DNA from: a virus
IMG/VR virus record: IMGVR_UViG_3300032163_000002
Location: 64,001-128,000 of that record
Length of the DNA: 64,000 bases
Direction: 5' to 3' (one strand)
The translations under genes and the position numbers were made by a program. Below are positions 535 through 35,863 of this stretch, one piece after another. The notes under the pieces were generated by a model. It had not been told where the DNA came from. It did no database searches and saw only the letters and a program-made list of their open reading frames with translations. How positions within the stretch are numbered: the first letter of the stretch is position 1; every line of letters begins with the position of its first letter.

Positions 535-563
535 AACTTACACCTGTAAACTAAAAATGTCAA
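535..563 (-). promoter_or_regulatory. sigma70-type promoter TTGACA-N17-TAAGTT with near-perfect CTTAC-N4-GTAAG palindrome
   Basis: plus strand aacttacacctgtaaactaaaaatgtcaa; member of a 7-copy family. Confidence 0.85.
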
Positions 564-1009
564 GCCCTTTTTTTCGTTCGATTCACTATGGCACACCCCG
601 ACATTAAACGTTCATGAACGTGCCGAACAAATTTCGTGCTGAACTTGTAATGCCCGGACACCTGCTTGTAAATTGTCTCTAAATCCGTGTCTGTCTTCTC
701 TCGGGCTGCTTCGACAGCTAGATAAAGTTGAAGCTCAGTCCAGATTCGATTCCAGACCCGCATGCGGGGAATAACAAATGTCTTGCCACTATACAACGAA
801 AGAAATTGTCGAAAAGTTTCAAGAGTAAACCCAAAACCAGCAAAATCCACAAGCTGTGGGCAAGCAGGAGACGCCAGCGCGATGAAAAGTCGAAGTGCAT
901 CCTTCTCACTAATCTTGCTTGTGAAATATCTTGCAGAAATTTTCGGAAGTGGAGCGAAATCTGTGGCAAGAATTTCAATAGATTCCCTGATCTCCCTCTT
1001 CAATGTCAC
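560..1009 (-). CDS. Mor/C-like transcription activator (putative)
   Basis: YSGKTFVIPR resembles the Mor GG-x-x-x-YIP motif, followed by a C-terminal HTH-like segment. Confidence 0.45.
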   Translation of the reverse strand: MTLKREIRESIEILATDFAPLPKISARYFTSKISEKDALRLFIALASPACPQLVDFAGFGFTLETFRQFLSLYSGKTFVIPRMRVWNRIWTELQLYLAVEAAREKTDTDLETIYKQVSGHYKFSTKFVRHVHERLMSGCAIVNRTKKRA

Positions 1010-1782
1010 GGCATTTCTCGATTTTTCAGAAGTTCAGGAACCTGAAGAATCGCATTACGAGCAAGATGCTCTCCGTATTGAATGATGAAAAATGGATCAG
1101 GAGGTTTCCATTGTGATCGAATAAGAGTAGGGGAAGGAAACCGACCTCGTAAACGTTGAAAAGCAGAAAAACGAACAGCCTCTCCCCACGGAGTCAACGC
1201 GTAAATATTCAAAGAATCCACCGCTTTTACGACCGCTGTCGGAAATGATTCCTCAAGAAACATCTCCTGCATCATCGGATCGGAGTTGTTAACTTCGTGA
1301 GGCTCTACCGCATCATCATCAGAGACATCTTCTTCACTAAGCGAAAGCGCCACACGCATCAAATGCTCTTCTTCCGGAAAGTCACCCTCATCATCTTCAC
1401 TTTGTGCGGTCCCATAAGACAAAAGAGAACCTTTTTTCAACCGAGCAAGCTCGCGGAACATAGAATATTTTGCCACAGAGTAAAGCACACGAAAAAGTAT
1501 ATCAGGACTAAGCGTATCCGTGAGGATAGCCAATTTTTTTGCGCTTCGATGAAACTCAAGAAGTGCCGCTTGCTCCAAATCCTCACGATCAGGAGAATTC
1601 CGCATACTTGCAAACTGGACAACGAAGACAGCTTTCGTCAAGTCGATAGCCGCGTGTATCCATACCTCGCTACGTTTGACTGAACGTGGAGCTTTTCGTA
1701 AATCCTGAAGAGCGTAAAATAACGTCAAGTTCCGAGTGCTAGCTACTGAAACCGCTCTGGACCTATTCACGCTCACGGGCAA
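1006..1782 (-). CDS. sigma-factor-like protein (region 2-like)
   Basis: DREDLEQAALLEF...LYSVAKYSMFRELAR resembles sigma70 region 2; acidic linker follows. Confidence 0.45.
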   Translation of the reverse strand: MPVSVNRSRAVSVASTRNLTLFYALQDLRKAPRSVKRSEVWIHAAIDLTKAVFVVQFASMRNSPDREDLEQAALLEFHRSAKKLAILTDTLSPDILFRVLYSVAKYSMFRELARLKKGSLLSYGTAQSEDDEGDFPEEEHLMRVALSLSEEDVSDDDAVEPHEVNNSDPMMQEMFLEESFPTAVVKAVDSLNIYALTPWGEAVRFSAFQRLRGRFPSPTLIRSQWKPPDPFFIIQYGEHLARNAILQVPELLKNREMP

Positions 1783-1793
1783 CCTCCACTATG

Positions 1794-1830
1794 AAAAAAG
1801 AGGGGCGTGGAGCAATATACTCCTCACCCC
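1794..1830 (-). terminator. intrinsic terminator downstream of the AT-hook gene
   Basis: minus-strand imperfect hairpin GGGGTGAGGAG-N7-CTCCACGCCCC followed by TCTTTTTT. Confidence 0.7.
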
Positions 1831-1854
1831 CCCCTTCCCGCAAGGGAAAGCACC

Positions 1855-2523
1855 TTAGAGAATCGCAGCCGCGCCAAGCACCGGAGGAAGGCCCTCACCA
1901 CCAAGCTTGAGGGACAGCACTTCGGCGTCAGTAACCGGAATGTCCCCCGGAATCTCCGGGACAACCGGAAGCCCCGTAGCCACCTTGATCGCACGAGCGG
2001 CTTCAGTTTCCGACGTGATCTTCCGAGGGCGCCCCCGACCGCGCTTGATCGGAATACCGTCCGACCCGAGTGTGACAGGCTTCGGGGGACGGCCACGACC
2101 GCGCTTGATCGGAATACCGTCCGGCCCGAGTGTGACAGGCTTCGGGGGACGGCCACGACCGCGCTTGACTGGGGCGCCAGCCACGACAGGCTTCGGGGGA
2201 CGGCCACGACCGCGCTTGACGGGGGCGCCAGCCACGACAGGCTTCGGGGGACGGCCACGACCGCGCTTGACGGGGGCGCCAGCCACGACCGGTAATGCAG
2301 ACACAGCCGCCGCAGGAGAAGAACCTGCAACAGCGGGAGTCTGCTGCCCCTGAGCGTACTTGTGGAGCGAAATGAACTCAGTTTGCGCCGCCGTCAGTGG
2401 ATGAACTCCACCAGAGATCCGACGCGCGATGTTCGAAAACATGAGGTAGGCGTAAGGGTTTGCCTCCATCGCCTGCGCGATGACATTAGAGGCGGCTTCG
2501 ATAGGGGTCAGGATCTTTTTCAT
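1855..2523 (-). CDS. multi-AT-hook DNA-binding protein (HMGA-like)
   Basis: five KRGRGRP(P/R)K motifs; start reassigned to ATG 2523 (MKKILTP) behind RBS AAAGGAGAG. Confidence 0.85.
   Translation of the reverse strand: MKKILTPIEAASNVIAQAMEANPYAYLMFSNIARRISGGVHPLTAAQTEFISLHKYAQGQQTPAVAGSSPAAAVSALPVVAGAPVKRGRGRPPKPVVAGAPVKRGRGRPPKPVVAGAPVKRGRGRPPKPVTLGPDGIPIKRGRGRPPKPVTLGSDGIPIKRGRGRPRKITSETEAARAIKVATGLPVVPEIPGDIPVTDAEVLSLKLGGEGLPPVLGAAAIL
2020..2290. repeat. intragenic tandem repeats (two ~60-bp and three ~51-bp units) encoding AT-hooks
   Basis: recurring gacaggcttcgggggacggccacgaccgcgcttga. Confidence 0.9.
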
Positions 2524-2525
2524 GA

Positions 2526-2969
2526 TTACTTCTCTCCTTTTCTTTCCAGATTCATGATGTTCGTTACGGTTCCAAATTGAATCCACTTCGGGGCGTTTTC
2601 TCCTTCGGACCAAGAGACTACCATATATTTTCCGGGTTTCAAAATTCCAAGGTAAGATTTCGGGACAGACGCTACCGCTGAAGGCCGAGACTTGCTGTAG
2701 GAAATCCTGTATGAGGTATCGGCAGTGCCGTCCGAGGAAACCAGACGGATGAAGCCGGTATTCTTGTCGTAGAGCCAGATGATGTGACTCGGACGGCCCA
2801 ACGCGGCCAGTGCGTCACGAGTCAAGGTAATCTGCACTCCGTTTCTCGTTATCCTCACGTAAGGCTGCTCAAGCACGGCGTTGAGCGGAACCGGCAACTT
2901 CACAGGACGCCGCCTGCGCGCCCCACGTTTCGGCCCTATCATCACGTTAGAGACTTCCATTTCATTCAT
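2526..2969 (-). CDS. hypothetical protein, possible AbrB/MraZ-like DNA-binding fold
   Basis: VRITRNGVQITLTRDALAALG pattern; basic N-terminus. Confidence 0.4.
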   Translation of the reverse strand: MNEMEVSNVMIGPKRGARRRRPVKLPVPLNAVLEQPYVRITRNGVQITLTRDALAALGRPSHIIWLYDKNTGFIRLVSSDGTADTSYRISYSKSRPSAVASVPKSYLGILKPGKYMVVSWSEGENAPKWIQFGTVTNIMNLERKGEK

Positions 2970-2984
2970 CTAAAAGCACTTCCT

Positions 2985-3242
2985 TTAGTCTTTGACCCTG
3001 CTCTGCCATTCTTCCTTTACCGCAGGCAGTAACCGCAGGATGTTCTCACCTTCACTGAGAATGATCTCTTCAAGTCGGGTTCTGGCTTCAACCCGAAGAC
3101 GCTCGAAACAAGCATCCTTTTCCTCCTGCGAGTTATCCGGGGCATCCTCCTCGAACCCCACGTCTGCACGAAAAAATTCGTAGTTACCGAGATTCACCGT
3201 TACCCCTAAACCGACCTTACATCGGGCCATGCGCCCCTCCAC
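2985..3242 (-). CDS. conserved phage hypothetical protein
   Basis: G-x-TVNLGNYE-x-x-R-x-D motif common in small phage proteins. Confidence 0.7.
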   Translation of the reverse strand: MEGRMARCKVGLGVTVNLGNYEFFRADVGFEEDAPDNSQEEKDACFERLRVEARTRLEEIILSEGENILRLLPAVKEEWQSRVKD

Positions 3243-3243
3243 G

Positions 3244-3278
3244 CTTACGAATGTAAGACTTCAAAAAGGAAAAGTCAA
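3244..3278 (-). promoter_or_regulatory. promoter TTGACT-N17-TACATT with CTTAC-N4-GTAAG palindrome shifted 8 bp downstream
   Basis: cttacgaatgtaag at 3244-3257; agtcaa at 3273-3278; GTG start at 3242. Confidence 0.75.
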
Positions 3279-3279
3279 G

Positions 3280-3474
3280 TTAATCTTGCAGCAGTGTTTT
3301 CTTTGAATCGGCGCGCTCTGACGGAGACACCAAAACGGGAGGTTCAACGACAAGATGTGTAGCTGTCAGAGAAATAACCCTATAACCCTTTTTCGTATAG
3401 CTACTTACGAACAGCGTAGCTTCACGAGGATCATCCGGAAGGGTATACACTTCCTGTATCGGTTTCTCAGGCAT
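3280..3474 (-). CDS. hypothetical protein
   Basis: MPEKPIQ start coupled to the upstream stop, with RBS. Confidence 0.6.
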   Translation of the reverse strand: MPEKPIQEVYTLPDDPREATLFVSSYTKKGYRVISLTATHLVVEPPVLVSPSERADSKKTLLQD

Positions 3475-4153
3475 TTTCTTTCTCCTCGCTGGTAATGACC
3501 GGCAGCAAACCGGCATCGGTTGAAGGTGTGTCTACGGGTTCAAGAGCAGGAATCACTTCGGCCTTCCCCAACTCCACGCTATAAGCGATGAGTTCTTCAG
3601 GAGTGAAAAGCTGCTCCACGTCAAGATGAGTACCTGTTGCAATCGTATATCGAGTCACGATATCCACGTTGTCAGGATTCTTCTTCAACCAGTAGACGAG
3701 ACCAGTGACATAACCCCCATAGATATAATGATCCGAATGCTCTTCGTTCCATTGGAGAACGAGCGTCACCCGGTCCCGCAGCGGAACCTCCTTCATCATG
3801 AAGTTCACGGTGTCAAGCACCTGCTTAAACTGAAGCTGCGTATTCGCCGTTTTCTTGTACTTTTCCATATCGAGAAAACCACCAGTAACAAGCTCACGAA
3901 CCAAAGCCTCAAACTTACTATCAAGCTCCCCATTGAAATGCGAAAGAAGCCCAATCCCATTTCCAAGACGTTTGAAATCAGCTACGACATCTCTGCGTTT
4001 TACGTCACCCGCTAACCATTTCTGATATTCCTCCGGTGTACGAAATACCGGAGCACCCTGTTCCAATAACGAAGGCTCATCATATTCCGGAATGGAAGAA
4101 GCCCGTTTCTGACTCCCACTACGATTCTTCGGCATAGTCGTCTTGTTACTCAT
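3467..4153 (-). CDS. hypothetical protein
   Basis: 228-aa ORF with ATGA coupling. Confidence 0.75.
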   Translation of the reverse strand: MSNKTTMPKNRSGSQKRASSIPEYDEPSLLEQGAPVFRTPEEYQKWLAGDVKRRDVVADFKRLGNGIGLLSHFNGELDSKFEALVRELVTGGFLDMEKYKKTANTQLQFKQVLDTVNFMMKEVPLRDRVTLVLQWNEEHSDHYIYGGYVTGLVYWLKKNPDNVDIVTRYTIATGTHLDVEQLFTPEELIAYSVELGKAEVIPALEPVDTPSTDAGLLPVITSEEKENA

Positions 4154-4794
4154 TCAGTTTCTCCCCTTTCTTCCTCTGGAATCTCTTCCGTTTTTTCAGC
4201 TTCAACTTCAGCAATCGCTTCCTCAGCACGGCCAGCAACAGGTAACTTTAATTTTTCCGGAGCAACCTTCGGGAAATAATCACCAAGAAAATCGAGTGTC
4301 GTTTTCAAATGGCTCTCTCGACGTTGTGTAAGCATTAAAAGAAACTGCATCACTGCTTCGTCACGCAACTTCCAATCGCCACGCCCCTTGAGAATGAACG
4401 AATCCTGAATTGGAGCACCTGTTTCATCAAGAGCTTGTTTATAAAACTGAGTCTCAAGAATATCCTGTGCATTGTTCAGCAACCGTCCTGTATTTCGAAG
4501 CTCTAATGCAGCTTCTGTGGCAATCCTCTTCAATTCCTTTCGCGCCAGATGCCTTTCCAATCGTTGTCGCTCAGTCCGCCAGTGTCCAGTCTTCGCCCAT
4601 ACGACAATAGTATTCAAAGGAATTTTAGTTTCCAGTGCAACTTTCCGAAGCGAAAACCCGTTTCTCAAATACAAATTCCTCGCTTTGAGACGAGTCTCGA
4701 ACGGATGAACTTTACGTATCTCCCCCGGCTTCAACTTCGATTCTTCTTCAGACACGGTCAACATTACCCACTTTTCGTCTTTCCACCGCTCCAA
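4150..4794 (-). CDS. HTH protein (terminase small subunit/gpP-like HTH)
   Basis: ARNLYLRNGFSLRKVALETKIPLNTIVVWAKTGHW HTH signature. Confidence 0.5.
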   Translation of the reverse strand: MERWKDEKWVMLTVSEEESKLKPGEIRKVHPFETRLKARNLYLRNGFSLRKVALETKIPLNTIVVWAKTGHWRTERQRLERHLARKELKRIATEAALELRNTGRLLNNAQDILETQFYKQALDETGAPIQDSFILKGRGDWKLRDEAVMQFLLMLTQRRESHLKTTLDFLGDYFPKVAPEKLKLPVAGRAEEAIAEVEAEKTEEIPEEERGETE

Positions 4795-5345
4795 CGAAGA
4801 GTATCATTGAGAGGCAGAATCTTGTCGGCAATACGCCGATACTCGGAATTGAGATCCCCTGCTCGAATGAACGCCACAACCCATAATACCTTCCCGGCTT
4901 CCTTGACCATATTCGCGGTCGGAAGAAGCGCCCCAGCTCCTGAGACAAGAACTACCTTATCATAATAGGCGAGCACTTCCCTCACATCCTGATAAACCGC
5001 ATGAGCCATCGAGGTACGAACGTAGTTGACATGACGAACTTCAGCAGTTTCATTTACCTTCATGGAACAAAAGCTTCGACGAACTTTATATCCGAGTCTC
5101 TTTAGCAGCTCTACGAAGGAATCATCTATGAAACCTGTCTGTTGTTCTGGCGGTATCAAAGATTTTTCCTGTATTTCCGTGGAAGCCACAGGCGTCACGA
5201 TGTAGGCTGTCAATAACGTTTCCTCTCCGGGGTGTGTAACGATCCGTTTTAGCTTAACATAATCCACACGAGCACGCGGATCTCCCGTGGTTCGTATCAA
5301 CCCGTGAAAAATATTTTGAATATCACATACAACGAAGGTTTTCAA
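4764..5345 (-). CDS. NYN (LabA/DUF88, PIN-like) domain protein with degenerate active site
   Basis: FVVCDIQNI, VDYVKL, VVLVSGAGAL, GKVLWVV motifs. Confidence 0.75.
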   Translation of the reverse strand: MKTFVVCDIQNIFHGLIRTTGDPRARVDYVKLKRIVTHPGEETLLTAYIVTPVASTEIQEKSLIPPEQQTGFIDDSFVELLKRLGYKVRRSFCSMKVNETAEVRHVNYVRTSMAHAVYQDVREVLAYYDKVVLVSGAGALLPTANMVKEAGKVLWVVAFIRAGDLNSEYRRIADKILPLNDTLRWSGGKTKSG

Positions 5346-5941
5346 GGAGTCTCCTCCGCATTTTCATGAGCAAAAGTAAGTGCTACCCGATTAAGAAAAG
5401 CTACTGCGAATACTTCAAGTTTCGCAATTCGATACATTCCTACGCGAAGACATAAACATTTTACGTCCCCAAAAGCATCAGTGCTGTTCCAAAGTATAAG
5501 CGGCTCTCGATAATTTTTCATAAGCACCACAACCGGGAGAAGAAGCTTTGGCGCAGTCTTTCTGTCTTGCTCCCCACGCAATTTTTCAGTAGCTTCCTTA
5601 AGCCATTCAAACCCGACCCACTTCATTTCGAGTTCAAGCAGATTATCAAATGTCCATATTTCCCGGTTTTTGACTTCTATGTAAACCGGAAAACGGGCGC
5701 GTACTTCATCAGACATGCGCAAATCAGACCGTTCAATAAAAGCACCAGAATTCGGAGTTCGACACAAAGCCTTGTATTCAACTCCGAGAATTTTCCCAAG
5801 TATCTTGGCAATTTTCAGTTCACCTGATTTCCCCTTCGTCCGAGCCCTACGGCCATGTCCTGCCTTCGTCCGAACCATGACTTTCCCGAAACCTTCACAT
5901 TTAGGACAGGTCTTTTCGGTAAAACTTTCAGCTTCGCTCAT
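5342..5941 (-). CDS. Holliday junction resolvase-like PD-(D/E)xK nuclease
   Basis: KGKSGE...SD(L)...IEVK motifs; N-terminal CxxC. Confidence 0.7.
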   Translation of the reverse strand: MSEAESFTEKTCPKCEGFGKVMVRTKAGHGRRARTKGKSGELKIAKILGKILGVEYKALCRTPNSGAFIERSDLRMSDEVRARFPVYIEVKNREIWTFDNLLELEMKWVGFEWLKEATEKLRGEQDRKTAPKLLLPVVVLMKNYREPLILWNSTDAFGDVKCLCLRVGMYRIAKLEVFAVAFLNRVALTFAHENAEETP

Positions 5942-6150
5942 TCAGCTACCTTAATCCACTCTGCCCCATCCCATTTTACAGTCACCGAAGTCAAAAAAAG
6001 ATCAACCTGAAACTCCGGATCTTTGGAGGGGTTAACCTCCGAGTAAAAAAACATGCACAACTTGCTCTTATCTGCGCGTTCAGCCTGCTTTTCAAAAGAC
6101 AAAGGCACCCATCTACCCTTACACTCGGCAACGAATTCTAGAATAGTCAT
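5938..6150 (-). CDS. hypothetical protein
   Basis: 70-aa ORF coupled on both sides. Confidence 0.6.
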   Translation of the reverse strand: MTILEFVAECKGRWVPLSFEKQAERADKSKLCMFFYSEVNPSKDPEFQVDLFLTSVTVKWDGAEWIKVAE

Positions 6151-6686
6151 GCTGCAATCTCAAGGGCCTTCAAAAATGCTTTCCGAATTGCCCACGCATA
6201 ACTACTAAGCGTAACATGCACGCCACCACAGCACTGTCCACAATGAAGACCAACCTCGTTCATTGATATTTCTTTCACAAGAAGTCTAAACTTTTTCACG
6301 TCAATACGCGCTAATTCTTCATCAGAAAGATTCAACTCTTTCAAAACTTCATTAAGTGCGCGTCTAGGCCAATATGTATCGTAAATCGGAACTGCGGTTT
6401 TACGAAGCCAACACCACATTTCAGTAGCGTCATTAACATTCGGAGCTTCATCGTGACAGCGCGTGCATAACGCAACAATATTATTCACATCATCTGTTCC
6501 ACCAAGTGAAACCGGAACGATATGACACCTCTGAAGTTGAGCTTCATAGCCGCATCTCCAGCAGCGTTCATGTGCCTCAGCCCAATCAACACCAAGCCCT
6601 ACTTCTGTTTGACGGATCTCCCAATAGCGTACGGTTTCCGCCAACCAATCTTTTTTCTTATTCCGTCTTCGAGATAATACTCCCAT
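6147..6686 (-). CDS. HNH endonuclease
   Basis: CWRCG...CHIVPVSLGG...NIVALCTRCH. Confidence 0.85.
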   Translation of the reverse strand: MGVLSRRRNKKKDWLAETVRYWEIRQTEVGLGVDWAEAHERCWRCGYEAQLQRCHIVPVSLGGTDDVNNIVALCTRCHDEAPNVNDATEMWCWLRKTAVPIYDTYWPRRALNEVLKELNLSDEELARIDVKKFRLLVKEISMNEVGLHCGQCCGGVHVTLSSYAWAIRKAFLKALEIAA

Positions 6687-6687
6687 A

Positions 6688-8604
6688 TTAAACTCTAGCT
6701 ACTTCGATGACTTGATCTACAAGAGCACGCGCAGTATTCATGTGAGAAATCAAATACGTCGGTCTGTTCTGTTCCCGCGCTCGTGTCTGAAGATATGTCA
6801 CAGCCCTCATTGTACCCTCTTCATCAAGGGCATCCAGAATTTCATCATAAACACACAAAGAAATTCCACGCTGAGCGCGCATTCCAATAAGATCCTGAAG
6901 AGCAAGAAGAATTGCAAGATCAATTCGTCGCTTCTCCCCACCGGAATTTCCTTCGTAAATTTCCGCCCCACGAGTGTTAATAATATTCACACTCATGCGC
7001 TCCGCTGCCGTCCCTTTTTTCAACATCGTCGTCGCCTGAATTTCAGCACTAAACCCGCCACCTGTCAAGGCATATAAATGATCGTTCACCCGCCGGTTTA
7101 ACTCAGGGAGCAACCCTTCGATGATAAAAGCCTTGATCCCCTTTGATCCAAAAGCGTCACGCCAAAAATCATATATCCCCAATTTTCCTGAAACCTCATC
7201 TAGAGCTTTCTGGACCTCTGCCGTTTTAACTTTCGCCTCCATGAGCTTCTGTTCAACGCTCGCAAGGCTCACCGTATAAGGGTCCACCTCCCTATCAAAT
7301 TTTTCCACCGCACCAAGAGCATTGCTAAAAGCGGTCTCTGCCGTAGCCTTCCACTGCTGCGTCGTCTGATATCGTAGCAAAACCTCCGCAAGTTTTGCTG
7401 AAACATCCGTAAGAGATTTCTGCCGTACGGTCATATCACTTCGCAATTTTTCCAGTTCCGTACTTAATAAACCGTGATCTTCTTTAACCTGCATGATGAG
7501 CCCGTCAAGGTTCTTCTTCTCGTTTCCTTTCGCTATCACTTCAGCAGCAGCTTCGGCGCGCTGCACAGCAATGTGCATCTCCGCTGAACCGTCATGTTTT
7601 ATTTCCTGCCCACAGGTCGGACAAACCTTCATGACCACGGACAGCTCCTCAATTTTCCGCTCCAACGCCCGAATATCGCCGTCAATAACTGCACGATTTG
7701 CAAGAAGCTCCGTAAAATAATCCTTCAATTCCGCCACGGATTGTTCTGTCAAAACAATTTCAGACAATATGTTCTGTGTCTCTGTCGTATCCAATATTTT
7801 CTTGTGTGTGGTCTCCTGAGTCATCAAATCTTTTACAAGAACATTCTGCTCCGTGAGCGTCTTTTTGCACTCCTCCAACGAAACCATTGCCCCGTCAGCC
7901 TGCTCAATAAGAGTTTTTCGAGTCTCCACACGCCCTTGCCGCCATGCTTCCCTAGCCACCTTACCCCCAGCAAGCGTCTGTTGGTGGATTTCCTCCGTTG
8001 TAATAGACAGATTTAAGGTATTCTGATATTCAGACAAAACTCCAGTCAATTCACCATACTTGTTTTCAGCGAGTTTCAATGCGGTGTCATACTCATCCAA
8101 TCCATAAATCCTATCAAAAATGGATTTACGTTCAGCGTCACTCATGTTTCCAGATGCGAAAAAAGCCCCAAGCCCCTGCCCGAAAATAATGGAATTCGTG
8201 AAGGTCCTATAATCCAGTCCAAGCCACTCTTCAACCTTTTTCTGTTGCTCCGCAAGATTCGCGGCTGCGAAAATAGGAAGGCCATCACGCAAAGTATAGA
8301 GTACCTGAGCCGCCACACGAGGCTTCACCCGACGTATCTGATAAGTGCTTCCGTCATCACTATCTTGAACGGTAACGGTTACGTCAGTTGATGCACATTC
8401 TTTATTGATCACATCATTGACGGTCTTTTTTGGGCGGACAGTATCTCCGAATAGACACCACGTAACAGCTTCGCTATACCGACTTGATTTCCCTGCACCG
8501 TTCTTTCCAATGACAAGAGTCAACCCCGGAGCAGTCAAATCCACCGTCTCCGTCCCAATGACGTTCATGAAATCCGCAAGAGTAACCCTTACGAAATGCA
8601 GCAT
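6688..8604 (-). CDS. sbcC: SbcC/Rad50-like SMC ATPase (gp46-like)
   Basis: GKNGAGKS Walker A, CPTCG zinc hook, SGGEKRR signature, YDE Walker B; start reassigned to 8604. Confidence 0.92.
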   Translation of the reverse strand: MLHFVRVTLADFMNVIGTETVDLTAPGLTLVIGKNGAGKSSRYSEAVTWCLFGDTVRPKKTVNDVINKECASTDVTVTVQDSDDGSTYQIRRVKPRVAAQVLYTLRDGLPIFAAANLAEQQKKVEEWLGLDYRTFTNSIIFGQGLGAFFASGNMSDAERKSIFDRIYGLDEYDTALKLAENKYGELTGVLSEYQNTLNLSITTEEIHQQTLAGGKVAREAWRQGRVETRKTLIEQADGAMVSLEECKKTLTEQNVLVKDLMTQETTHKKILDTTETQNILSEIVLTEQSVAELKDYFTELLANRAVIDGDIRALERKIEELSVVMKVCPTCGQEIKHDGSAEMHIAVQRAEAAAEVIAKGNEKKNLDGLIMQVKEDHGLLSTELEKLRSDMTVRQKSLTDVSAKLAEVLLRYQTTQQWKATAETAFSNALGAVEKFDREVDPYTVSLASVEQKLMEAKVKTAEVQKALDEVSGKLGIYDFWRDAFGSKGIKAFIIEGLLPELNRRVNDHLYALTGGGFSAEIQATTMLKKGTAAERMSVNIINTRGAEIYEGNSGGEKRRIDLAILLALQDLIGMRAQRGISLCVYDEILDALDEEGTMRAVTYLQTRAREQNRPTYLISHMNTARALVDQVIEVARV

Positions 8605-21134: not shown

Positions 21135-21163
21135 AACTTACACCTGTAAGTTAAAAAAGTCAA
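21135..21163 (-). promoter_or_regulatory. promoter TTGACT-N17-TAAGTT with perfect AACTTAC-N4-GTAAGTT palindrome
   Basis: aacttacacctgtaagttaaaaaagtcaa; SD AGGAGG downstream. Confidence 0.88.
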
Positions 21164-26099: not shown

Positions 26100-26128
26100 A
26101 ACTTACACCCGTAAGAGAAAAAAGTCAA
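26100..26128 (-). promoter_or_regulatory. promoter TTGACT-N17-TAAGTT with CTTAC-N4-GTAAG; leaderless start at 26093
   Basis: aacttacacccgtaagagaaaaaagtcaa. Confidence 0.85.
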
Positions 26129-26137
26129 GAGATACCC

Positions 26138-26166
26138 TTGACAGTCAAACGTATTGAACCTAAGTT
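26138..26166 (+). promoter_or_regulatory. divergent promoter TTGACA-N17-TAAGTT without palindrome
   Basis: ttgaca gtcaaacgtattgaacc taagtt. Confidence 0.75.
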
Positions 26167-27238: not shown

Positions 27239-27283
27239 GACGTTATCATTCCTCCCACACTAAACCTGTAAGAGATAATCCTT

Positions 27284-27772
27284 TCACGAGCTATCTTTGT
27301 TAAGCGCCTTGAATCGTGTCAGCGTCTTTAATTTATGCTGTATCGGGCGTAACCCCTCACGAAGACGACGCCGATTGATCGCAGCACAAATTGACAAGTA
27401 ATTTGCTGTGTGACAAGACTCACACCGACAACCTCGTTGATACCGCGCGCAAGTCCCATGCTGAGACAGTGCCCGTTTTATTCCAGCTTCTGTTACACGC
27501 AACCGACTAACATGAGCAATACGTCTGACTGCTACTCCAGTTATAGGCTCATTTTTTTCACGCAACAATTTCATGGCATTTTCAAAGCGCTTGTTTCGAG
27601 CATATTGAGAAGCATGAAAGCGAGCAAGAACAGCCTGCTCCTCCTGTCCAGCCCGTGTAACGATTTGTCGAACCCGCTCACGACTTATTTCAAATTGACG
27701 GCCTATCGCAGAAAGCGGTGCGCCTTTCAAAGCCAATTCAATAATCAGCATTTCACGAGTCTTGTTAACCAT
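27284..27772 (-). CDS. sigma70 region-4-like HTH protein with C-terminal Cys/His zinc motif
   Basis: LSAIGRQFEISRERVRQI; HGT..RY..GCRC..C. Confidence 0.75.
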   Translation of the reverse strand: MVNKTREMLIIELALKGAPLSAIGRQFEISRERVRQIVTRAGQEEQAVLARFHASQYARNKRFENAMKLLREKNEPITGVAVRRIAHVSRLRVTEAGIKRALSQHGTCARYQRGCRCESCHTANYLSICAAINRRRLREGLRPIQHKLKTLTRFKALNKDSS

Positions 27773-29622: not shown

Positions 29623-29999
29623 CGCGGCGGAATATTCTTGTATTGATCAGTACAGGCCATATCCAATGCTTTCCGTAATACCTTCACCAATTTTTTTGTT
29701 TCAGCAAGATCGCTCCGAAGAGATGCATCTGTAAAAAGAAACTCTTCAATATAAGGATGGTCTGAATCATCTGGCAACGCCTTGAACATGAACTCTATCG
29801 CTTCTCGTGTCAATCTGGTCAATTTACTGACACAAGTTATATCTGGAATTTTAACTCGTGATTTTGTCGTTTGTAGAGCCAAGATATTCACTGTTCTCAA
29901 CAACTTACTTCGCTGTTCATTCAAATCTGTAACAGCAACGCAAGTACCTTCATGCTTCAATTCAAAACACCGAAAACATATTGTTGGGCGCTGATTCAT
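29577..29999 (-). CDS. hypothetical protein
   Basis: CxxC..H..C N-terminus; ATGA coupling. Confidence 0.6.
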   Translation of the reverse strand: MNQRPTICFRCFELKHEGTCVAVTDLNEQRSKLLRTVNILALQTTKSRVKIPDITCVSKLTRLTREAIEFMFKALPDDSDHPYIEEFLFTDASLRSDLAETKKLVKVLRKALDMACTDQYKNIPPRWPPLHYIRVARKKI

Positions 30000-30475
30000 A
30001 CTTTTTTCTTCTCACCAAGAATAATCTTTTCAACTTGGTCGTCACTCAACCCTCGCCAACGACACCACCGAATAACACAACCCACTTTGAAATTGAGCCA
30101 CACATTTTCACAGGCATGTTTCACAAGCTCAAAAGCTGCCCGCCAGTAACTACCGTACCACGCACGAACTAAACACCACAGATTAAGCTGCCATATAGGT
30201 TCTACTTTTATTCCCCGATCCTGAAATACACGAAGCCCCCGCAAGGCATTCTCCCACGGAACAGAGTAAACAGGATATCGACGGTTCACTTCAATACTCC
30301 GCGTTTTCATGCTGCATATCTTGCACACTACACGCCGCTTGTGACCTGCAAAAACGCCATGACAAGAACAGCACTCATTCCAATAATTGCCGTTCTCGTG
30401 CTTAAAATCTTCAGGCCAATCCCGTTCCGTTGCTTTCCAGTCCCGTTCATTTACTTTGTAAGAAGAATCAGCCAT
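29996..30475 (-). CDS. hypothetical protein with N-terminal Zn ribbon
   Basis: RDWPEDF.HENGNY..C..C..F.GHKRRVVCKIC motif. Confidence 0.7.
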   Translation of the reverse strand: MADSSYKVNERDWKATERDWPEDFKHENGNYWNECCSCHGVFAGHKRRVVCKICSMKTRSIEVNRRYPVYSVPWENALRGLRVFQDRGIKVEPIWQLNLWCLVRAWYGSYWRAAFELVKHACENVWLNFKVGCVIRWCRWRGLSDDQVEKIILGEKKKV

Positions 30476-31085
30476 TTTTCGTTACCTCAAATAATTTGTT
30501 CTTTTCATAAATCGCCTGTACCCAACTGGCAGAAAGACCAAAGCGCTTTCCAATCAAACCGTATGCTTCTCCCTTATTGCGAGCTTTAACGATTTCGTGA
30601 TCCCTTTCTTTTCTTGCCGGAGCACCAAGTGCCCGAACAGAAAGTACCGGAATCACACGACGCTTCGGAAATCTGGTATTAAGCATGCACTCTCTATTAT
30701 GAAAATATTGACTCTCATGCTTCGGATTGAACGAAACCCCACAGCCTTCACACTGTCGCAAACGTGCCCCGCAAGTAGGACACACCGAACCACCCTCCGC
30801 AGAGGGCTTCTTGTATCGTTTTTCCAGCCCCGTTTCATATCCTGTAACAATCGGTAATTGAACACCATACCTCTTCAATATACAACACAGTAACTGATGC
30901 GAATTCTCCCCAAAATTACGAAGGAGAAACATTGCCCTCCATTGCAAACCATCTCGGTAAAGAAGACACCCCGTAGATGTACGCGCAAGGTCTAAAGTCG
31001 TTTTCAAATTGGCACTACGCAAACAATTTTTTAAGCGCTCCGTCAAATCGAGTTCTTCCAAAACGATAGATTTCTGCTCAACCAT
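30468..31085 (-). CDS. RNA polymerase alpha-CTD-like domain + Zn ribbon + HTH fusion
   Basis: LEELDLTERLKNCLRSANLKTTLDL...LRNFGENS; CPTC..CEGC; RDHEIV..G.AYGLIGKRFGLSASWV. Confidence 0.7.
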   Translation of the reverse strand: MVEQKSIVLEELDLTERLKNCLRSANLKTTLDLARTSTGCLLYRDGLQWRAMFLLRNFGENSHQLLCCILKRYGVQLPIVTGYETGLEKRYKKPSAEGGSVCPTCGARLRQCEGCGVSFNPKHESQYFHNRECMLNTRFPKRRVIPVLSVRALGAPARKERDHEIVKARNKGEAYGLIGKRFGLSASWVQAIYEKNKLFEVTKNG

Positions 31086-32034
31086 GAAATTCTCCCGGAA
31101 TTTCTTTATAGATTTTTCCGATCACGCCTGTCTTCATATCTCCAACAAGACTCGGGGGCCAATAAAAAGTTCCGATTGCATGCCCGAGCAATGGGCGTTC
31201 GGACAAATATGTTTTGAAGTGTCCCCGCCGCAAATGCACCCCGATTAAAACTTTTTGCTGTGTCGCGCGGCGGATCTCGTCTTCAGAAAGAATTCGCTGT
31301 GTGCCGGGCACTCTAATTCGCAAAGTGTGATAACGAAGATACAGAAGACCACCACGGCGCACATGTTTCTTCGACAACTTCTCCGGAGGATTGATCTCCT
31401 CCGGCAAAACATTTCGACAGGATAAAAGCCCCTGAAAAAATAAAGCGACGTGACAAGAAGCGGGCACAGAGATATCCCCGAGACGTATATCCGTATCCGG
31501 CACGGTTAAATCATCGAGCTGAGAAACGAATTCTCCTCGATAAGTGTAAGCTGTACGTAAAACCCGTCCATCCTTTTCAAGCACAGCAATCATTGTCACA
31601 GTCGGCTGAATGACAATATTCCCCGCTTCAATAAACGGAACTAGTACCTGAATCCACCGTGCCCCGGCTATAAAATGCTGCCATAAAACGACACCTGCCG
31701 GGTCAAGGAACTCAGGACACATAAAGTGGTCAGGTGTAATTTGCTGCTGGTCAAACGTCACAATAGCCACAGCAGAGCATGCACCTTTCTCGTGCCATTC
31801 ATACCACACATTTTGATACGGCGGAGCAGCAGGTGGAATATCATAGATAGAAGTTTGAGCGATAACGGGAAACGTCTGTAACCCGTGGGCATGCTGAAAA
31901 TGTTCAAGCGCAAGTGGAAATACGGACGTACATTCGAAACTCTGGAATAACCCTCTCGGTGCAGACGGAAAAGTGCCAAACGGTATGACAACTTCAGTCA
32001 TCCGGTCAAGAAGGAGCGTTCGGTAGCTGCTCAC
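31078..32034 (-). CDS. hypothetical protein (HLRRGH motif family)
   Basis: HLRRGHFK...YWPP..VG; start reassigned to the coupled GTG. Confidence 0.7.
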   Translation of the reverse strand: MSSYRTLLLDRMTEVVIPFGTFPSAPRGLFQSFECTSVFPLALEHFQHAHGLQTFPVIAQTSIYDIPPAAPPYQNVWYEWHEKGACSAVAIVTFDQQQITPDHFMCPEFLDPAGVVLWQHFIAGARWIQVLVPFIEAGNIVIQPTVTMIAVLEKDGRVLRTAYTYRGEFVSQLDDLTVPDTDIRLGDISVPASCHVALFFQGLLSCRNVLPEEINPPEKLSKKHVRRGGLLYLRYHTLRIRVPGTQRILSEDEIRRATQQKVLIGVHLRRGHFKTYLSERPLLGHAIGTFYWPPSLVGDMKTGVIGKIYKEIPGEFHG

Positions 32035-32618
32035 CGAAAATCTTCCTTCCACGCGCTTATCCAACCACCGCAAGCAAGGAAAGGACGAAACACGCGCTTT
32101 AGCTTCCGAATTTCCACGAGGTTGTCCACACAGATGCTCGACCAAATATCGAAGTAGATCGTGTCGTAGCGCGTGCCTCGCTTTGGACGCCACTTAAAAA
32201 TGTCGGCCACGACAACACGCATACCCAGCGGAAGCGAGGGGTTCACGAGCGTCACAACATCAGGATATTTCTCGACAACTGTGATCTCGGTGACGTTCTT
32301 TTTCTTGGCGAGCGCATGCAAGACAAGCCCGATACCGAGCCTGGCGACCAGAACTCGACCATGCGCCTCTTCCACGATTTCACGGTTCGTCCGCTTCTCC
32401 ATCTGTGTGTCGCTCATCACAAGCTCACCATTCACCTTGAGCATGACGTAGCGACCCAGCGACACTAAAGCATCGCGCCTCCCGTGGATCATGGTGTGCA
32501 GATTAGCGAACCGCACGTCCTGCTCCGAAAGAGTGAAATGCGTCACCTCAGCGACCCCAGCCTTGCCCGGAGGCAGGAGTGTCGTCATGGTCTTCGGGAA
32601 ACCTGCGGAAGCGTCCAT
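32031..32618 (-). CDS. spermidine-synthase-like SAM-dependent methyltransferase
   Basis: MSDT.ME, GRVLVARLGIG, VVEK, ADIF, YDTIYFDIW; leaderless ATG at 32618. Confidence 0.75.
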   Translation of the reverse strand: MDASAGFPKTMTTLLPPGKAGVAEVTHFTLSEQDVRFANLHTMIHGRRDALVSLGRYVMLKVNGELVMSDTQMEKRTNREIVEEAHGRVLVARLGIGLVLHALAKKKNVTEITVVEKYPDVVTLVNPSLPLGMRVVVADIFKWRPKRGTRYDTIYFDIWSSICVDNLVEIRKLKRVFRPFLACGGWISAWKEDFR

Positions 32619-32625
32619 AAGGGAT

Positions 32626-32654
32626 AACTTACACCCGTAAGAGAAGAATGTCAA
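32626..32654 (-). promoter_or_regulatory. promoter TTGACA-N17-TAAGTT with CTTAC-N4-GTAAG
   Basis: aacttacacccgtaagagaagaatgtcaa. Confidence 0.88.
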
Positions 32655-32657
32655 GAG

Positions 32658-33230
32658 CTATTTCGCTATACCCCTGTCATCTTTTATCGACCCCTCTGGC
32701 GGAAACTCCACCGCTCGTGCCCGACGAGCCTCGATTAACAGTGCCCTCACATCGGCCCGTGCCTGTGCAGGATAGGCAACGAAACGCCTCTCAATCTCCA
32801 AGAGGATTTCCTCGCTCATCCTCCCGCTCGCGGGTAAAGGCGGGACGGAAGAAACGCAGGGATACCCAGCAAGCCGCTCTCCGACACGAGGCTCCAGTGG
32901 GGAGGCAGATTCGCGCCACTCCATCAAAGCTTTATTGTCGTCCGACACCACCCGCCATGCTCCACGCGGTTTTACAGGCGAGGATGAGGAGGAAGGAGCT
33001 GGCTTATTCATTTTGAAAACAAGTTCTGCCATGTTGCATAAAGCGTTCAGCTCTGGCAGCCCAATCGTAGTGCAGTTGTTTTTTTCGTCACGTCCTATTT
33101 TTCTGATGCAGTCAATTTGCTCCTGTGTTAAAACTGCCTTGAAAATAGGACGGGTACATATACAACCCGGCTCCAAGCAACCAAGTCCAGTATGAGTGGT
33201 ATGAATACAGTAAGAACACAATTCGATCAT
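32658..33230 (-). CDS. hypothetical protein
   Basis: N-terminal C..C.H..H..C..C.C. Confidence 0.6.
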   Translation of the reverse strand: MIELCSYCIHTTHTGLGCLEPGCICTRPIFKAVLTQEQIDCIRKIGRDEKNNCTTIGLPELNALCNMAELVFKMNKPAPSSSSSPVKPRGAWRVVSDDNKALMEWRESASPLEPRVGERLAGYPCVSSVPPLPASGRMSEEILLEIERRFVAYPAQARADVRALLIEARRARAVEFPPEGSIKDDRGIAK

Positions 33231-33233
33231 TTT

Positions 33234-33488
33234 TCACTCCAAGAATTTCTCGAATGCCTTTTCGAGTTTTGCAAAGCCTGTATGGTCATACAACCGCTGC
33301 ATCATTACCGACTGGCACGGCATTTCCATGTGCGCCAAATAAAACCAGTGCTGACGTTGAGCGGTATCCTCGGGAGCATTCGAAAAGAAAAACATCCAAG
33401 AATCGTTCTTTTCCTTGTTGGAAATCAAATTCTTTGCTGTGTGCAGAATGATTGCAGCGGCCATACGGCGATAAGGAAGATCGTTCAT
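33234..33488 (-). CDS. hypothetical protein
   Basis: coupled ORF. Confidence 0.6.
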   Translation of the reverse strand: MNDLPYRRMAAAIILHTAKNLISNKEKNDSWMFFFSNAPEDTAQRQHWFYLAHMEMPCQSVMMQRLYDHTGFAKLEKAFEKFLE

Positions 33489-33805
33489 GGTTTTTCCTCA
33501 ACATAAGGCCAAACAGGAGGAGCAGGCAAAGGCATCCACGCACGTACTTTCCGACCTGTGTTTCCGAAAAGAGAACCTTCTGAGCGCCAGTAACCGGAAT
33601 AAAACACAGTCTTACCATCTTTCTTTTGATTTTTTGGGGGTTTTTCAAAAGTGTCAATGAAAATGGAATGCTCATCCCACACTAAAAAGCAACCGCCGTA
33701 ATGTTGATAACTTCCTTTTTCAAATGTCACTTTCAAATCTGGCAAATCTGGCTGCCGTACAGAAGCATCAATCCAACCAAGATCCGATTCTCGGTCAACC
33801 ATCAT
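33485..33805 (-). CDS. DUF551-like protein
   Basis: WIDAS..P ... V.AWMPLP.PP. Confidence 0.7.
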   Translation of the reverse strand: MMVDRESDLGWIDASVRQPDLPDLKVTFEKGSYQHYGGCFLVWDEHSIFIDTFEKPPKNQKKDGKTVFYSGYWRSEGSLFGNTGRKVRAWMPLPAPPVWPYVEEKP

Positions 33806-34122
33806 TGAGAAACGACCTCCTCACCAAGCTCATCATCGAAAATCAGTTCTCCAAGCCCTTCAATTTTTCCATACCACACCGGACTACGAAGATTCAAGGA
33901 TGCCTCCGATACAGTCTGCCGCAAGGCAAACATGATACACGCAGGGTTTCTTACTTGTGCTCCCCAAGATCCACCGAAAACTTTGGTATCCCGATCTTCG
34001 ATCTCAATGGCAATAGGCATGAAGGGAGTGGGAACACCCATTCGATATTTGCTGGTGAAATAAGGGTTCACAGGAGACTTCAAATAGAATGTCTTACCAC
34101 AACGGTCAATCTTTCGTCGCAT
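33802..34122 (-). CDS. hypothetical protein
   Basis: IED..V.GGSW...NPA...VWYGKI.GLGEL pattern. Confidence 0.7.
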   Translation of the reverse strand: MRRKIDRCGKTFYLKSPVNPYFTSKYRMGVPTPFMPIAIEIEDRDTKVFGGSWGAQVRNPACIMFALRQTVSEASLNLRSPVWYGKIEGLGELIFDDELGEEVVSQ

Positions 34123-34369
34123 CGGGGGCCTCCGTCTTCACGGCAGCCGCCTCCAGTTGGGCGGCCTGTTTCAAGAGTCGTCGCCTCCGGATCGGATGCC
34201 ACCACGGTACGCCGAGCGCCATCGCGCGACAAACTGCCGCGATTTGGATGCCAAACTCTTTAACAGTGATTGGATAAAGGCCCCCTTCAGCATCTTCTTC
34301 TAGAACACGGTCGATGTGATCTGCCAGCCCTTCAATTCGGCGCTTAGTCATCTCGTCAATTTCGCTCAT
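34106..34369 (-). CDS. hypothetical protein
   Basis: start reassigned to MSEIDEM. Confidence 0.55.
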   Translation of the reverse strand: MSEIDEMTKRRIEGLADHIDRVLEEDAEGGLYPITVKEFGIQIAAVCRAMALGVPWWHPIRRRRLLKQAAQLEAAAVKTEAPDATKD

Positions 34370-34652
34370 CTCTTCTCTTTTTTTGCAACTCTCGTCGCGT
34401 CGCGCGAGATAGCGGTTGGGCGGGCGCTTCCCCCGCCGAGGGCTCAACCACCCTACTTTCATTCCGGTCATCGGTGTTGCTCAACAATGACTCTCCGGGC
34501 GTCTCTATTCGGAGCTTACGGCGTCGCTGGACCCTCTTGTTGATGTCTTCTCGGGAATCCCTGTGCGGCGAGTCTGTCGCCACTCGCAACCGCATAATCA
34601 TTTCGTCGCCCGGCGCGTCATGTTTTTCTCGGACTTCCTCTTCGTTTTTCAT
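34356..34652 (-). CDS. hypothetical protein
   Basis: TAATG coupling; charged. Confidence 0.55.
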   Translation of the reverse strand: MKNEEEVREKHDAPGDEMIMRLRVATDSPHRDSREDINKRVQRRRKLRIETPGESLLSNTDDRNESRVVEPSAGEAPAQPLSRATRRELQKKRRDERN

Positions 34653-34882
34653 TAGCAGTCCAGCACGATGTGAACGAAACCCTTACGTAACCGTGACTGC
34701 CCACAACGTATGCGCTGTCGGAGTCTCATGTCTTCAGACACCCTCCAGCCCATCGAAGTGCCAGAAGGCTGAATGGAGTCAGCGAAAGCCTTCACCTGTT
34801 CGTTCGTCCAGTCAGAAGGGACGCAGACCTGTATGGCCAGAGGACGAGCTTGAATCAGCGTAGGCTTCGGCTTCGAGTCCAT
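34652..34882 (-). CDS. conserved phage hypothetical protein
   Basis: QVCVPSDWTNEQV..FA...P.GT..GW; leaderless ATG at 34882. Confidence 0.7.
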   Translation of the reverse strand: MDSKPKPTLIQARPLAIQVCVPSDWTNEQVKAFADSIQPSGTSMGWRVSEDMRLRQRIRCGQSRLRKGFVHIVLDC

Positions 34883-34889
34883 GCCCGAT

Positions 34890-34918
34890 AACTTACATCC
34901 GTAAGAAGCGAATGTCAA
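34890..34918 (-). promoter_or_regulatory. promoter TTGACA-N17-TAAGTT with CTTAC-N4-GTAAG
   Basis: aacttacatccgtaagaagcgaatgtcaa. Confidence 0.88.
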
Positions 34919-34990
34919 GGACTTTTTCGCTATGCTTTGAAAAAAATAGAACCGAAGTTGAAATTTACACCTAGCAGAGTTTCATATTTT

Positions 34991-35041
34991 TTTACACTTC
35001 ACTTTTCTTTACACTTCACTTTTCTTTACACTTCACTTTTT
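34991..35041. repeat. 3 x 17-bp direct repeat TTTACACTTCACTTTT(C/T) in an AT-rich non-coding region
   Basis: direct inspection. Confidence 0.9.
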
Positions 35042-35428
35042 CTATTCTTCAAAAAGATAGAATTTGTTGACCGACAGTGATTTATGCGGAGCGAAGCGAA
35101 GCCTAACCACGTAAGGGGGGAGATTCCCAAGTGCGAAGCACGAAGGGATTCGGGGGGAATACGCCTGCCAGAATGGCGTGTCAAGTACTATCTTTCGACA
35201 GCATCTAAGTAGTATAAAACACAATGATTTAGACGTGTATCGAAAAGTTACACATTGATCACACCCCCTGTTTTCTTACGGCAAAAACGCTTCTTTGCAG
35301 CCCCCGACCGCATGTAATGCATGATGGCTAAGTGCTTGTTTGCCGTACCATCGCTTTTAAGCCGATTCGCTCTCCAAAGGCCCTAACTGCAAAGCTTTAC
35401 AGTCAGGGCCTCTCAACCTTTCATGGCC

Positions 35429-35803
35429 TCAGTCCGCCGGGGAAGCGCCGCGCACCTCCAACTTGGCGAACTCGATGATCTTGGAGTACTTTGCGATCTG
35501 TTCCGGGGTCAGAAGACTCTTGTCGATGTCCGTCCGCTTCGACGGAATGGCCTGCACAACACCTTCCGGGGTCGTGAAGCTGGACACATCCGCCTCGATG
35601 AGAGCAGTCCCCAGCCGGGCAACGAGGGCCTTCTCCTTGTCTTCGAGCTGATGTTTGAGACTCCGGACCTCGACCAGCTCCTTGATGTTTTCGGTCACAT
35701 CCTTTCGGACAGTCTGCTTGAAGCCGCCTTTCTTCGCAGCTTCCAGTAGTGCAGCCTTATCCAGCGTAGGGGTGGCCTCGGTAACGTGTTTCTGGCTCGA
35801 CAT
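35429..35803 (-). CDS. hypothetical protein (first gene of the leftward block)
   Basis: strong SD AAGGAGG; own promoter. Confidence 0.75.
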   Translation of the reverse strand: MSSQKHVTEATPTLDKAALLEAAKKGGFKQTVRKDVTENIKELVEVRSLKHQLEDKEKALVARLGTALIEADVSSFTTPEGVVQAIPSKRTDIDKSLLTPEQIAKYSKIIEFAKLEVRGASPAD

Positions 35804-35834
35804 AGTCTGGTTCCTCCTTTTCCTTTCAATCTAT

Positions 35835-35863
35835 AACTTACATCTGTAAGATCGAAAAGTCAA
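35835..35863 (-). promoter_or_regulatory. promoter TTGACT-N17-TAAGTT with CTTAC-N4-GTAAG
   Basis: aacttacatctgtaagatcgaaaagtcaa. Confidence 0.88.

Follow-up and report, generated by a model that had tools for sequence, protein, structure and literature searches.

A palindromic, operator-like element recurs in the sigma70-type promoters of early and replication operons of an uncultured phage

We analyzed a 64,000-nucleotide stretch of viral DNA (the window), which comprises bases 64001-128000 of the 141,027-bp phage record IMGVR_UViG_3300032163_000002, a complete genome with terminal repeats present. Coordinates below are those of the window unless they are marked as genome positions. We found that a set of sigma70-type promoters, which we call class A, carries a 14-bp palindrome (dyad) of the form CTTAC-N4-GTAAG laid over the spacer and the -10 box, and that these promoters precede replication and recombination genes as well as many small orphan genes. 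We propose that the dyad is the operator of one dimeric repressor, which would occlude the -10 box and would be an unrecognized phage protein, a reading that we hold with about even confidence.

Enrichment of the dyad at class A promoters

The exact sequence CTTAC-N4-GTAAG occurs six times in the window (positions 3244, 21137, 26102, 32628, 34892, and 35837), compared with 0.03 expected occurrences, and six or more copies were reached in 0 of 100 shuffles. A seventh copy, at 537, has one mismatch. According to the open reading frame (ORF) map of the window, all seven lie on the minus strand and between ORFs. An initial annotation of this DNA had described seven sigma70 promoters with this dyad, all minus-strand and all intergenic or at gene junctions, and both statements hold; the coordinates it used run 2 nucleotides below the dyad starts, since they mark the start of the -10 box.

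Over the whole 141-kb genome, there are 10 exact copies and two promoter copies with one mismatch, and the promoters counted genome-wide are the 11 canonical ones of class A, the off-register one at window 3244, and a weak variant at genome 59352. The core TTAC-N4-GTAA is found at 14 sites, against about 1.2 expected, with a spacing of N4 between the arms at 14/14; 12 of the 14 are class A or off-register promoters, and those 12 are all intergenic. The remaining one-mismatch copies, at genome 59901 and 60348 (the latter within an ORF), equal the chance expectation. Therefore, the motif is not equally frequent inside genes; equal frequency is what the initial annotation had named as refuting its proposal. 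The term “phage-wide”, which it had used for the regulon, is overstated: a second spacer class and a late-type motif consisting of a -10 element only serve other genes, and with class A being one of at least three regulatory classes, the term is too broad.

Architecture of the class A promoters

Read on the minus strand, the class A promoters have the sequence cTTGAC(A/T)-N7-CTTAC-RRRT-GTAAGTT, that is, a TTGACW -35 box, a 17-bp spacer, and a TAAGTT -10 box. The dyad spans -22 to -9 in the 11 canonical promoters; its full 14-bp form is CTTAC(A/G)NNTGTAAG, with TTAC-N4-GTAA as the invariant core. In the profile of the 11 aligned promoters, information is full or almost full in three blocks (CTTGAC, CTTAC, and TGTAAGTT) and close to zero at the three spacer positions adjoining the left arm and everywhere outside about -48 to -5. 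The copies share no similarity in seven spacer bases or in their flanks, bar a weak A-rich stretch near -45. Since the flanks and these seven spacer positions vary freely, the promoters are not recently copied cassettes.

The -10 box is TAAGTT in all 11 canonical copies and shares with TATAAT only T-12, A-11, and T-7. A generic promoter and terminator scan performed at chance level and missed class A, because TAAGTT matches TATAAT at only three of six positions. The -10 positions that matter least to sigma are invariant here, as expected if they double as the right arm of the dyad. The spacer measures 17 bp in 12/12 promoters.

For 5-6 of the 11 class A promoters, a long ORF has its start codon 6-7 nucleotides past the -10 box, i.e., at the predicted +1, which provides independent support for the promoter assignment. 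The mRNAs from these promoters, including that of a 534-residue SF2 helicase, are predicted to be leaderless. The corresponding starts are at window 528, 26093, 32618, and 34882 and at genome 62330 and 42082, and three of them share ATGGAC. The canonical promoters of the window, and the start codon belonging to the first of them, are as follows.

535-563, minus strand: class A promoter with operator; -35 box TTGACA at 558-563, dyad TTTAC-AGGT-GTAAG at 537-550 (outer base mismatched), -10 box TAAGTT at 535-540
6 nucleotides past the -10 box of the 535-563 promoter, minus strand: ATG of a 134-residue ORF, predicted leaderless
21135-21163, minus strand: class A promoter with operator, upstream of a run of genes from AAA_5 ATPase, CobT-VWA, and PolA through RecA to SbcCD; leader with AGGAGG
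26100-26128, minus strand: class A promoter with operator; ATG of the 534-residue SF2 helicase 6 nucleotides past the -10 box, predicted leaderless
32626-32654, minus strand: class A promoter with operator; ATG of a 195-residue ORF 7 nucleotides past the -10 box; the operon includes an orphan with alphaCTD-like, zinc-ribbon, and helix-turn-helix (HTH) parts
34890-34918, minus strand: class A promoter with operator; ATG of a 76-residue ORF 7 nucleotides past the -10 box
35835-35863, minus strand: class A promoter with operator, paired divergently with the plus-strand promoter that serves the head-gene block; leader with GGAGG

Sites that depart from the canonical arrangement

Four further sites in the window differ from this arrangement in register, completeness, or strand.

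3244-3278, minus strand: off-register copy; -35 box TTGACT at 3273-3278, -10 box TACATT at 3250-3255, exact dyad at 3244-3257 over -14 to -1
27259-27272, minus strand: degenerate relic (CTTAC-AGGT-TTTAG); -35 box missing, right arm with two mismatches
26138-26166, plus strand: divergent promoter TTGACA-17-TAAGTT without the left arm; an internal control with the same -10 box and no dyad
35891-35920, plus strand: divergent promoter TTGACA-18-TAAGGT without the dyad; precedes the terminase/portal block

At 3244, the dyad is intact and displaced by 8 bp over a different -10 box (TTGACT-N17-TACATT), just as first described: it begins at spacer position 16, compared with position 8 in the canonical copies, and its asymmetric center is inverted. 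We estimate the chance of an exact extra copy falling on a promoter core at <1e-3. This promoter heads an operon of orphan genes encoding proteins of 81, 147, and 222 residues, the last with an AT hook. At the weak promoter (genome 59352), the site reads GTTAC-AGGG-GTAAC, with both outer bases changed symmetrically.

The degenerate copy reported near 27259-27272 is present, but it has neither a -35 box nor an intact right arm and is probably non-functional. The two plus-strand promoters indeed do not carry the dyad, as the left arm is missing. In both divergent pairs (26124-26142 and 35863-35896), the facing -35 boxes form GTCAAG...CTTGAC inverted repeats, the first of which is taken for a hairpin by the terminator scan.

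Conservation of the dyad in related phages

Relatives were found by helicase alignment, and orthologous promoters were assigned by synteny. In relative L006 (helicase 58% identical, G+C content 54%), GTTAC-AGGT-GTAAT stands at the orthologues of the window 35837 and 21137 sites, and these two are the only TTAC-N4-GTAA sites of its 32.7-kb contig. In relative L074 (helicase 72% identical, G+C content 62%), TTTAC-AGAC-GTAAT is present at the helicase promoter, the orthologue of window 26100. Identity of the flanks at these orthologous promoters is 16-26%, which equals that of random sequence. The dyad core is thus kept amid diverged flanks and, in the off-register copy, at another position of the promoter; therefore, the dyad is a cis-element of its own. 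Its conservation independently of the promoter, as originally claimed, is borne out by the off-register 3244 site, the weak 59352 site, and the L006 and L074 orthologous promoters.

The closest helicase relatives are P0002 (70% identity, 41-kb contig) and P0003 (60%, 60-kb contig). Searches of the viral collection with P0002 and with a neighboring gene conserved at 82% returned only L006 or unrelated phages. The full promoter pattern gave one chance hit in the viral contigs, and a looser pattern led to L194, which was rejected as coding repeats of a tail-fiber-like gene. Among genome-collection contigs, the motif scan gave four single hits, at or below chance, including a blaI operon and a dnaG/tRNA region, and helicase alignment gave no matches.

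A proposed dimeric repressor and the points that weigh against it

From the sites themselves, where they lie, their statistics, and how far they are conserved, we infer that a protein binds the dyad, that it represses rather than activates, and that it is of phage origin. According to this proposal, a dimeric, sequence-specific DNA-binding protein would bind the 14-bp dyad, and the bound dimer would cover the -10 box, whether the dyad lies at -22 to -9 or, off register, at -14 to -1. In this position, the dimer would keep the host sigma70-type RNA polymerase from forming an open complex, and about 12 early and replication operons would be shut off or throttled together. The binder would most likely be a small phage protein outside current family models, comparable to T7 Gp5.7. 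A dimeric repressor coordinating the early and replication operons, as proposed in the initial annotation, is the most economical reading, and the set of operons fits it; the regulator itself was not found in the phage.

This result of the regulator search is one of several that weigh against the proposal. No credible cognate regulator emerged from Pfam and PHROG sweeps, six-frame family searches, a word-based search, and a full HMMER search. Pfam searches of about 175 ORFs gave no HTH_3, S24/LexA, Penicillinase_R, ribbon-helix-helix, or MarR/PadR-type hits and only five candidate DNA binders (27284, 30468, 4150, 1855, and 42748), which are orphans or poorly suited. The six-frame searches detected no HTH_3, Penicillinase_R (PF03965), Peptidase_S24, or LexA_DNA_bind domain in the phage: PF03965 had zero candidates at E<=10, a phmmer search of all frames with the BlaI protein of a bacterial locus described below (L233) had a best E of 2.5, PF00717 had no match, and PF01726 had noise inside DnaB only. 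Peptidase_M56 is absent among the families found in the Pfam sweeps. Regular-expression screens for ribbon-helix-helix and HTH patterns yielded nothing usable, the top match being Endonuclease VII. Three of the candidates have the following features.

30468-31085, minus strand: 205-residue orphan encoded within a class A operon; its N-terminal part is alphaCTD-like (PF03118, E 1e-6), and it also has a Cys4 zinc ribbon and a C-terminal sigma4/LuxR-like HTH
4150-4794, minus strand: HTH protein with weak matches to DUF1804 and to a “DNA binding protein” PHROG, followed by a helical charged tail
42748-43122, plus strand: 124-residue HU-like protein (PF00216, E 4e-7), whose gene separates the portal gene from the next head gene

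A full HMMER search with the 205-residue orphan returned partial matches only, to the ribbon and HTH parts, and no homologues; its predicted structure (predicted local distance difference test score, pLDDT, of 39) was too poor for a fold search. The candidate at 1855 is an AT-hook protein, and for a 147-residue orphan, a homologue search and the protein atlas gave nothing usable. As repressors, the four HTH candidates first put forward are weak: the protein at 27284 is homing-endonuclease-like (HTH plus HNH), that at 30468 is the orphan just described, that at 4150 has the weak DUF1804 match, and that at 2526-2969 is the 147-residue orphan, with no detectable domain.

Other points concern the sites themselves. 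The outer dyad bases are non-symmetric in L006 (G..T) and L074 (T..T). In the farther relatives L008 (helicase 49%) and L076 (47%), the position of the left arm in the spacer is occupied by CTTGAC, a direct repeat of the -35 box that is followed by a canonical TGn extended -10 box, and the dyad partner is absent; in L077, a still more distant relative, there is no spacer block. The left arm may thus descend from an older spacer element that functioned without symmetry. In addition, both dyad-free plus-strand promoters use TAAG-type -10 boxes, which means that part of the right-arm conservation may reflect a promoter preference. Finally, the register independence of the dyad rests on one strong case (3244) and one weak case (59352).

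Alternative explanations

The same observations on the relatives can be read in terms of the promoter alone. The spacer block and GTG-TAAGTT would then form a promoter-intrinsic signature, read by the holoenzyme or by a polymerase-bound phage factor (e.g., the alphaCTD/sigma4-like orphan), with the symmetry being incidental; we regard this as a tentative and rather unlikely alternative. The block at -22 to -17 is conserved across the clade, including the relatives with CTTGAC and no dyad partner, and it sits where polymerase can contact the spacer, through the beta-prime zipper (“Z element”) and sigma region 3. In each phage, two or more promoter classes exist, distinguished mainly by their spacers, and a phage protein with alphaCTD-like and sigma4-like parts does exist. 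Such a signature does not account for the 3244 copy and genome 59352, which keep the whole dyad and lose the register or the hexamers, nor for class B (described below) and the two plus-strand promoters, which share the -35 box and spacing and do so without CTTAC. By our estimate, the chance that a conserved 4-mer is the exact reverse complement of -13 to -10 is about 2%.

It is also conceivable that the dyad is read by a host repressor, either a winged-helix dimer of the BlaI/MecI/CopY type or a LexA-type SOS repressor, so that a host signal would gate the early and replication program; we consider this unlikely. The operator core of the BlaI/MecI/CopY family is the “cop box” TACANNTGTA (PMC1935004), and the extended 16-nucleotide CopR/CopY consensus is RNYKACANNYGTMRNY, with the core also written KACANNYGTM (PMC7253601). 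All 12 of the phage sites fit the 16-nucleotide consensus with 0-1 mismatch, and the exact 10-nucleotide core is present in four of them and in both L006 sites, the other eight phage sites having one core mismatch. Judged by the letters of the sites, the BlaI/MecI/CopY consensus fits better than the LexA box does. Moreover, the same site occurs at a genuine blaI promoter. In a Bacillota metagenome-assembled genome (L233, JAFADI010000150.1, 4474-4560), the blaI-blaR1 operon promoter, TTGACA-N17-TAAGTT, carries CTTACAATTGTAAG in the same register as in the phage, spanning the spacer and the -10 box, and a second copy lies 12 nucleotides downstream of the first. The genes of this locus, which was a chance hit of the genome-collection scan, were confirmed as Penicillinase_R and Peptidase_M56. 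Therefore, such a site can serve as a repressor operator.

A host repressor would also agree with the lack of a recognizable regulator among the phage proteins searched, with the phage RecA gene lying within a class A operon, and with the TTAC/GTAA half-sites of Bdellovibrio LexA (N3) and of a LexA-like protein from Elizabethkingia (N5) (PMC8565304). However, a resident repressor acting on 12 promoters would stand in the way of infection by the phage itself, and no anti-repressor or sensor partner (Peptidase_M56, S24) is encoded by the phage. Every site has N4, whereas LexA boxes of the TTAC type are known with N3 or N5, and the phage promoters have one operator where BlaI/CopY promoters usually have two. 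In addition, the G+C contents of the three dyad-keeping phages (46, 54, and 62%) suggest that their hosts differ. A more specific version, in which a host stress-sensing repressor (BlaI/MecI/CopY-type or LexA-type) would keep the early and replication program of a virulent-looking myovirus silent until envelope, metal, or DNA-damage stress, with the phage RecA as a possible positive feedback, appears distinctly improbable; it would be a dormancy set by the state of the host, with no repressor supplied by the phage.

The HU-like protein encoded at 42748-43122 might act like SPO1 TF1, binding and bending early promoters late in infection and thereby silencing them, which we judge very unlikely. 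SPO1 TF1 is an HU homologue that binds early promoters, and the replication module of our phage is about 30% identical to those of SPO1-like Bacillus phages. The PF00216 match (E 4e-7) exceeds the curated cut-off, and the protein is conserved in near and far relatives (47-52%), including a 35-residue N-terminal extension; its conservation is, however, equally strong in the dyad-less relatives. The gene sits in the head module, the arm of the protein does not have the usual proline tip, and the HU family reads DNA shape over about 35 bp, not a sharp 5-4-5 dyad. The predicted structure was uninformative (pLDDT 51, too poor for a fold search). The protein is more likely a head or DNA-packaging protein than the binder. 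It could be a DNA-binding head protein that is packaged.

That the promoters are homogenized or mobile regulatory cassettes, like T4-type promoter-early-stem-loop units, with the palindrome as a functionless passenger, is hardly credible: 11 near-identical 30-bp cores do occur in one genome, and the spacers of class B are wholly invariant with a conserved stem-loop after two of them, but identity in class A ends at the functional blocks and the orthologous promoters of relatives keep the dyad core amid diverged surroundings.

Three further readings were rejected. An RNA hairpin was dismissed as the dyad lies upstream of +1, and a MerR-type activator site as it needs a 19-20 bp spacer with a dyad, compared with the 17 bp of these promoters. 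Reverse-ordered cre- or TyrR-type boxes were discarded since their arms are everted.

Other promoter classes and gene content

Class B consists of six minus-strand copies at genome 30476-41527 (L242:4476-15527) with the sequence CTTGACT-TTCTGTAATAARTAACC-TATMTT, in which the 17-nucleotide spacer hardly varies; a GGCCGC-AGARA-GCGG stem-loop follows two of the copies. Relative G002 has a second class of its own (L238:4992), ..TTAGTTAT-TACATT, before an orthologous early gene. A candidate late promoter is the third motif, (G)AACTATCT: it has no -35 box and is found ahead of structural and late genes, 10-25 nucleotides upstream of their ribosome-binding sites. The phage lacks the T4 late promoter motif TATAAATA.

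Window 45176, plus strand: (G)AACTATCT site
Window 59844, minus strand: (G)AACTATCT site
Genome 2644, 8592, 10673, 13936, 18676, 19573, 52344, and 140010, minus strand: (G)AACTATCT sites

The promoters of L008 and L076 follow the pattern TTGACA-N7-CTTGA(C)-(C)GTGY-TAnnnT, in which a second -35 hexamer stands 13 bp downstream of the first. At four of the five L076 promoters (1306, 5088, 17079, and 19575), the arrangement TAATAT-N6-ATGG is leaderless-like.

L008 6314, 7481, 8218, 9951, and 16322: TTGACA-N7-CTTGA(C) promoters
L076 1306, 5088, 6993, 17079, and 19575: TTGACA-N7-CTTGA(C) promoters

The phage has no cultured relative above 35% identity, and its replication module is nearest to those of SPO1-like Bacillus phages. 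The replication and recombination genes in class A operons include those for the SF2 helicase, DnaB, DnaG, the AAA_5 ATPase with CobT-VWA, PolA with a UDG domain, RecA, and SbcCD. The structural genes are T4-like according to Pfam. No tRNA genes were found in the phage, and no integrase or CI/Cro-type gene is among the families found in the Pfam sweeps and the HTH_3 search of the genome.

Three successive head-module genes on the plus strand (36408-39773, 39809-42748, and 43119-45176) each contain a LAGLIDADG-type insert, and in the two that lie on either side of the T4-type portal gene, an intein-splicing domain was also detected. Elsewhere, a 293-residue protein to which no function is assigned (genome 55601-56482; L243:9601-10482, minus strand) is 81% identical in L006, compared with 58% for the helicase and 51% for the polymerase; its gene adjoins an adenylosuccinate-synthetase-like gene (genome 54394-55572).

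Implications

These results provide a regulatory map for an uncultured phage clade, comprising a dozen operator-bearing sigma70-type promoters, half of them predicted to be leaderless, together with a second class and a late motif consisting of a -10 element only. Control of phage genes by an operator-based regulon is familiar; of more interest are the leaderless design and the fact that the regulator was not found. Affinity capture on DNA with the exact 14-bp site would make the binder easy to isolate if it is a new small phage protein. Promoter and operator together would form a small, sharply delimited switch. Should a host repressor of the BlaI/CopY or LexA type turn out to bind instead, this would represent an unusual form of host-state sensing for a large phage of lytic type.

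Comparison with known systems

The phage sites resemble BlaI/MecI/CopY operators in that a dyad lies over the core promoter, and the readers of the BlaI family are homodimeric repressors. Unlike the BlaI and CopY systems, the phage encodes neither a Penicillinase_R protein nor a BlaR1-type sensor, and a Cys-X-Cys metal site is likewise missing. One operator is present per phage promoter, compared with the usual two, and the sites are spread over 12 viral operons, whereas BlaI-type sites belong to one local operon. Furthermore, one half of the site has TACG instead of the TACA of BlaI/CopY in seven of the 11 canonical copies and in the off-register copy. The phage dyad would thus work like a BlaI-type operator, a likeness that does not establish family membership.

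With respect to LexA, the initial annotation had named a TTAC-N3-GTAA box for Bdellovibrio LexA and had considered the phage geometry LexA-like. This box is correct for B. bacteriovorus (PMC8565304), but the spacing differs: the half-sites are identical and both elements are dyads, with N4 at 14/14 phage sites instead of N3. The LexA-like protein of Elizabethkingia uses the same half-sites with N5, and a change in spacer length abolishes binding of the LexA-like repressors tested (PMC8565304). Moreover, unlike LexA systems, the phage has no S24 or LexA domain.

T7 Gp5.7 is a 7-kDa, winged-HTH-like protein that represses host-polymerase promoters on the genome of a lytic phage (PMC5569994). It is similar to the proposed binder in being a small DNA-binding protein, unflagged by family models, that silences the phage's own sigma70-dependent early promoters. 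Gp5.7 binds RNA polymerase as well, and a sharp palindromic operator is not part of its system, whereas in our phage the dyad is precise and no reader emerged from the searches.

Like SPO1, the phage encodes an HU-like protein and a PolA/helicase module of the SPO1 type; its HU-like gene, however, is in the head module, and its sharp dyad is unlike TF1 sites. Further parallels are multi-operator repressor regulons, such as the C1 operators of P1, the gp71 operators and stoperators of mycobacteriophage L5, and the operators of the lambdoid phages and 434. These phages are temperate and have an identified repressor, in contrast to our phage with its T4-type structural genes and no integrase or CI/Cro-type gene among the families found, and the intragenic “stoperator” copies of L5 have no counterpart here. 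In both cases, one short site is repeated on many promoters, and the operators of 434, which are 14 bp long with a 5-4-5 layout, match the phage dyad in both respects.

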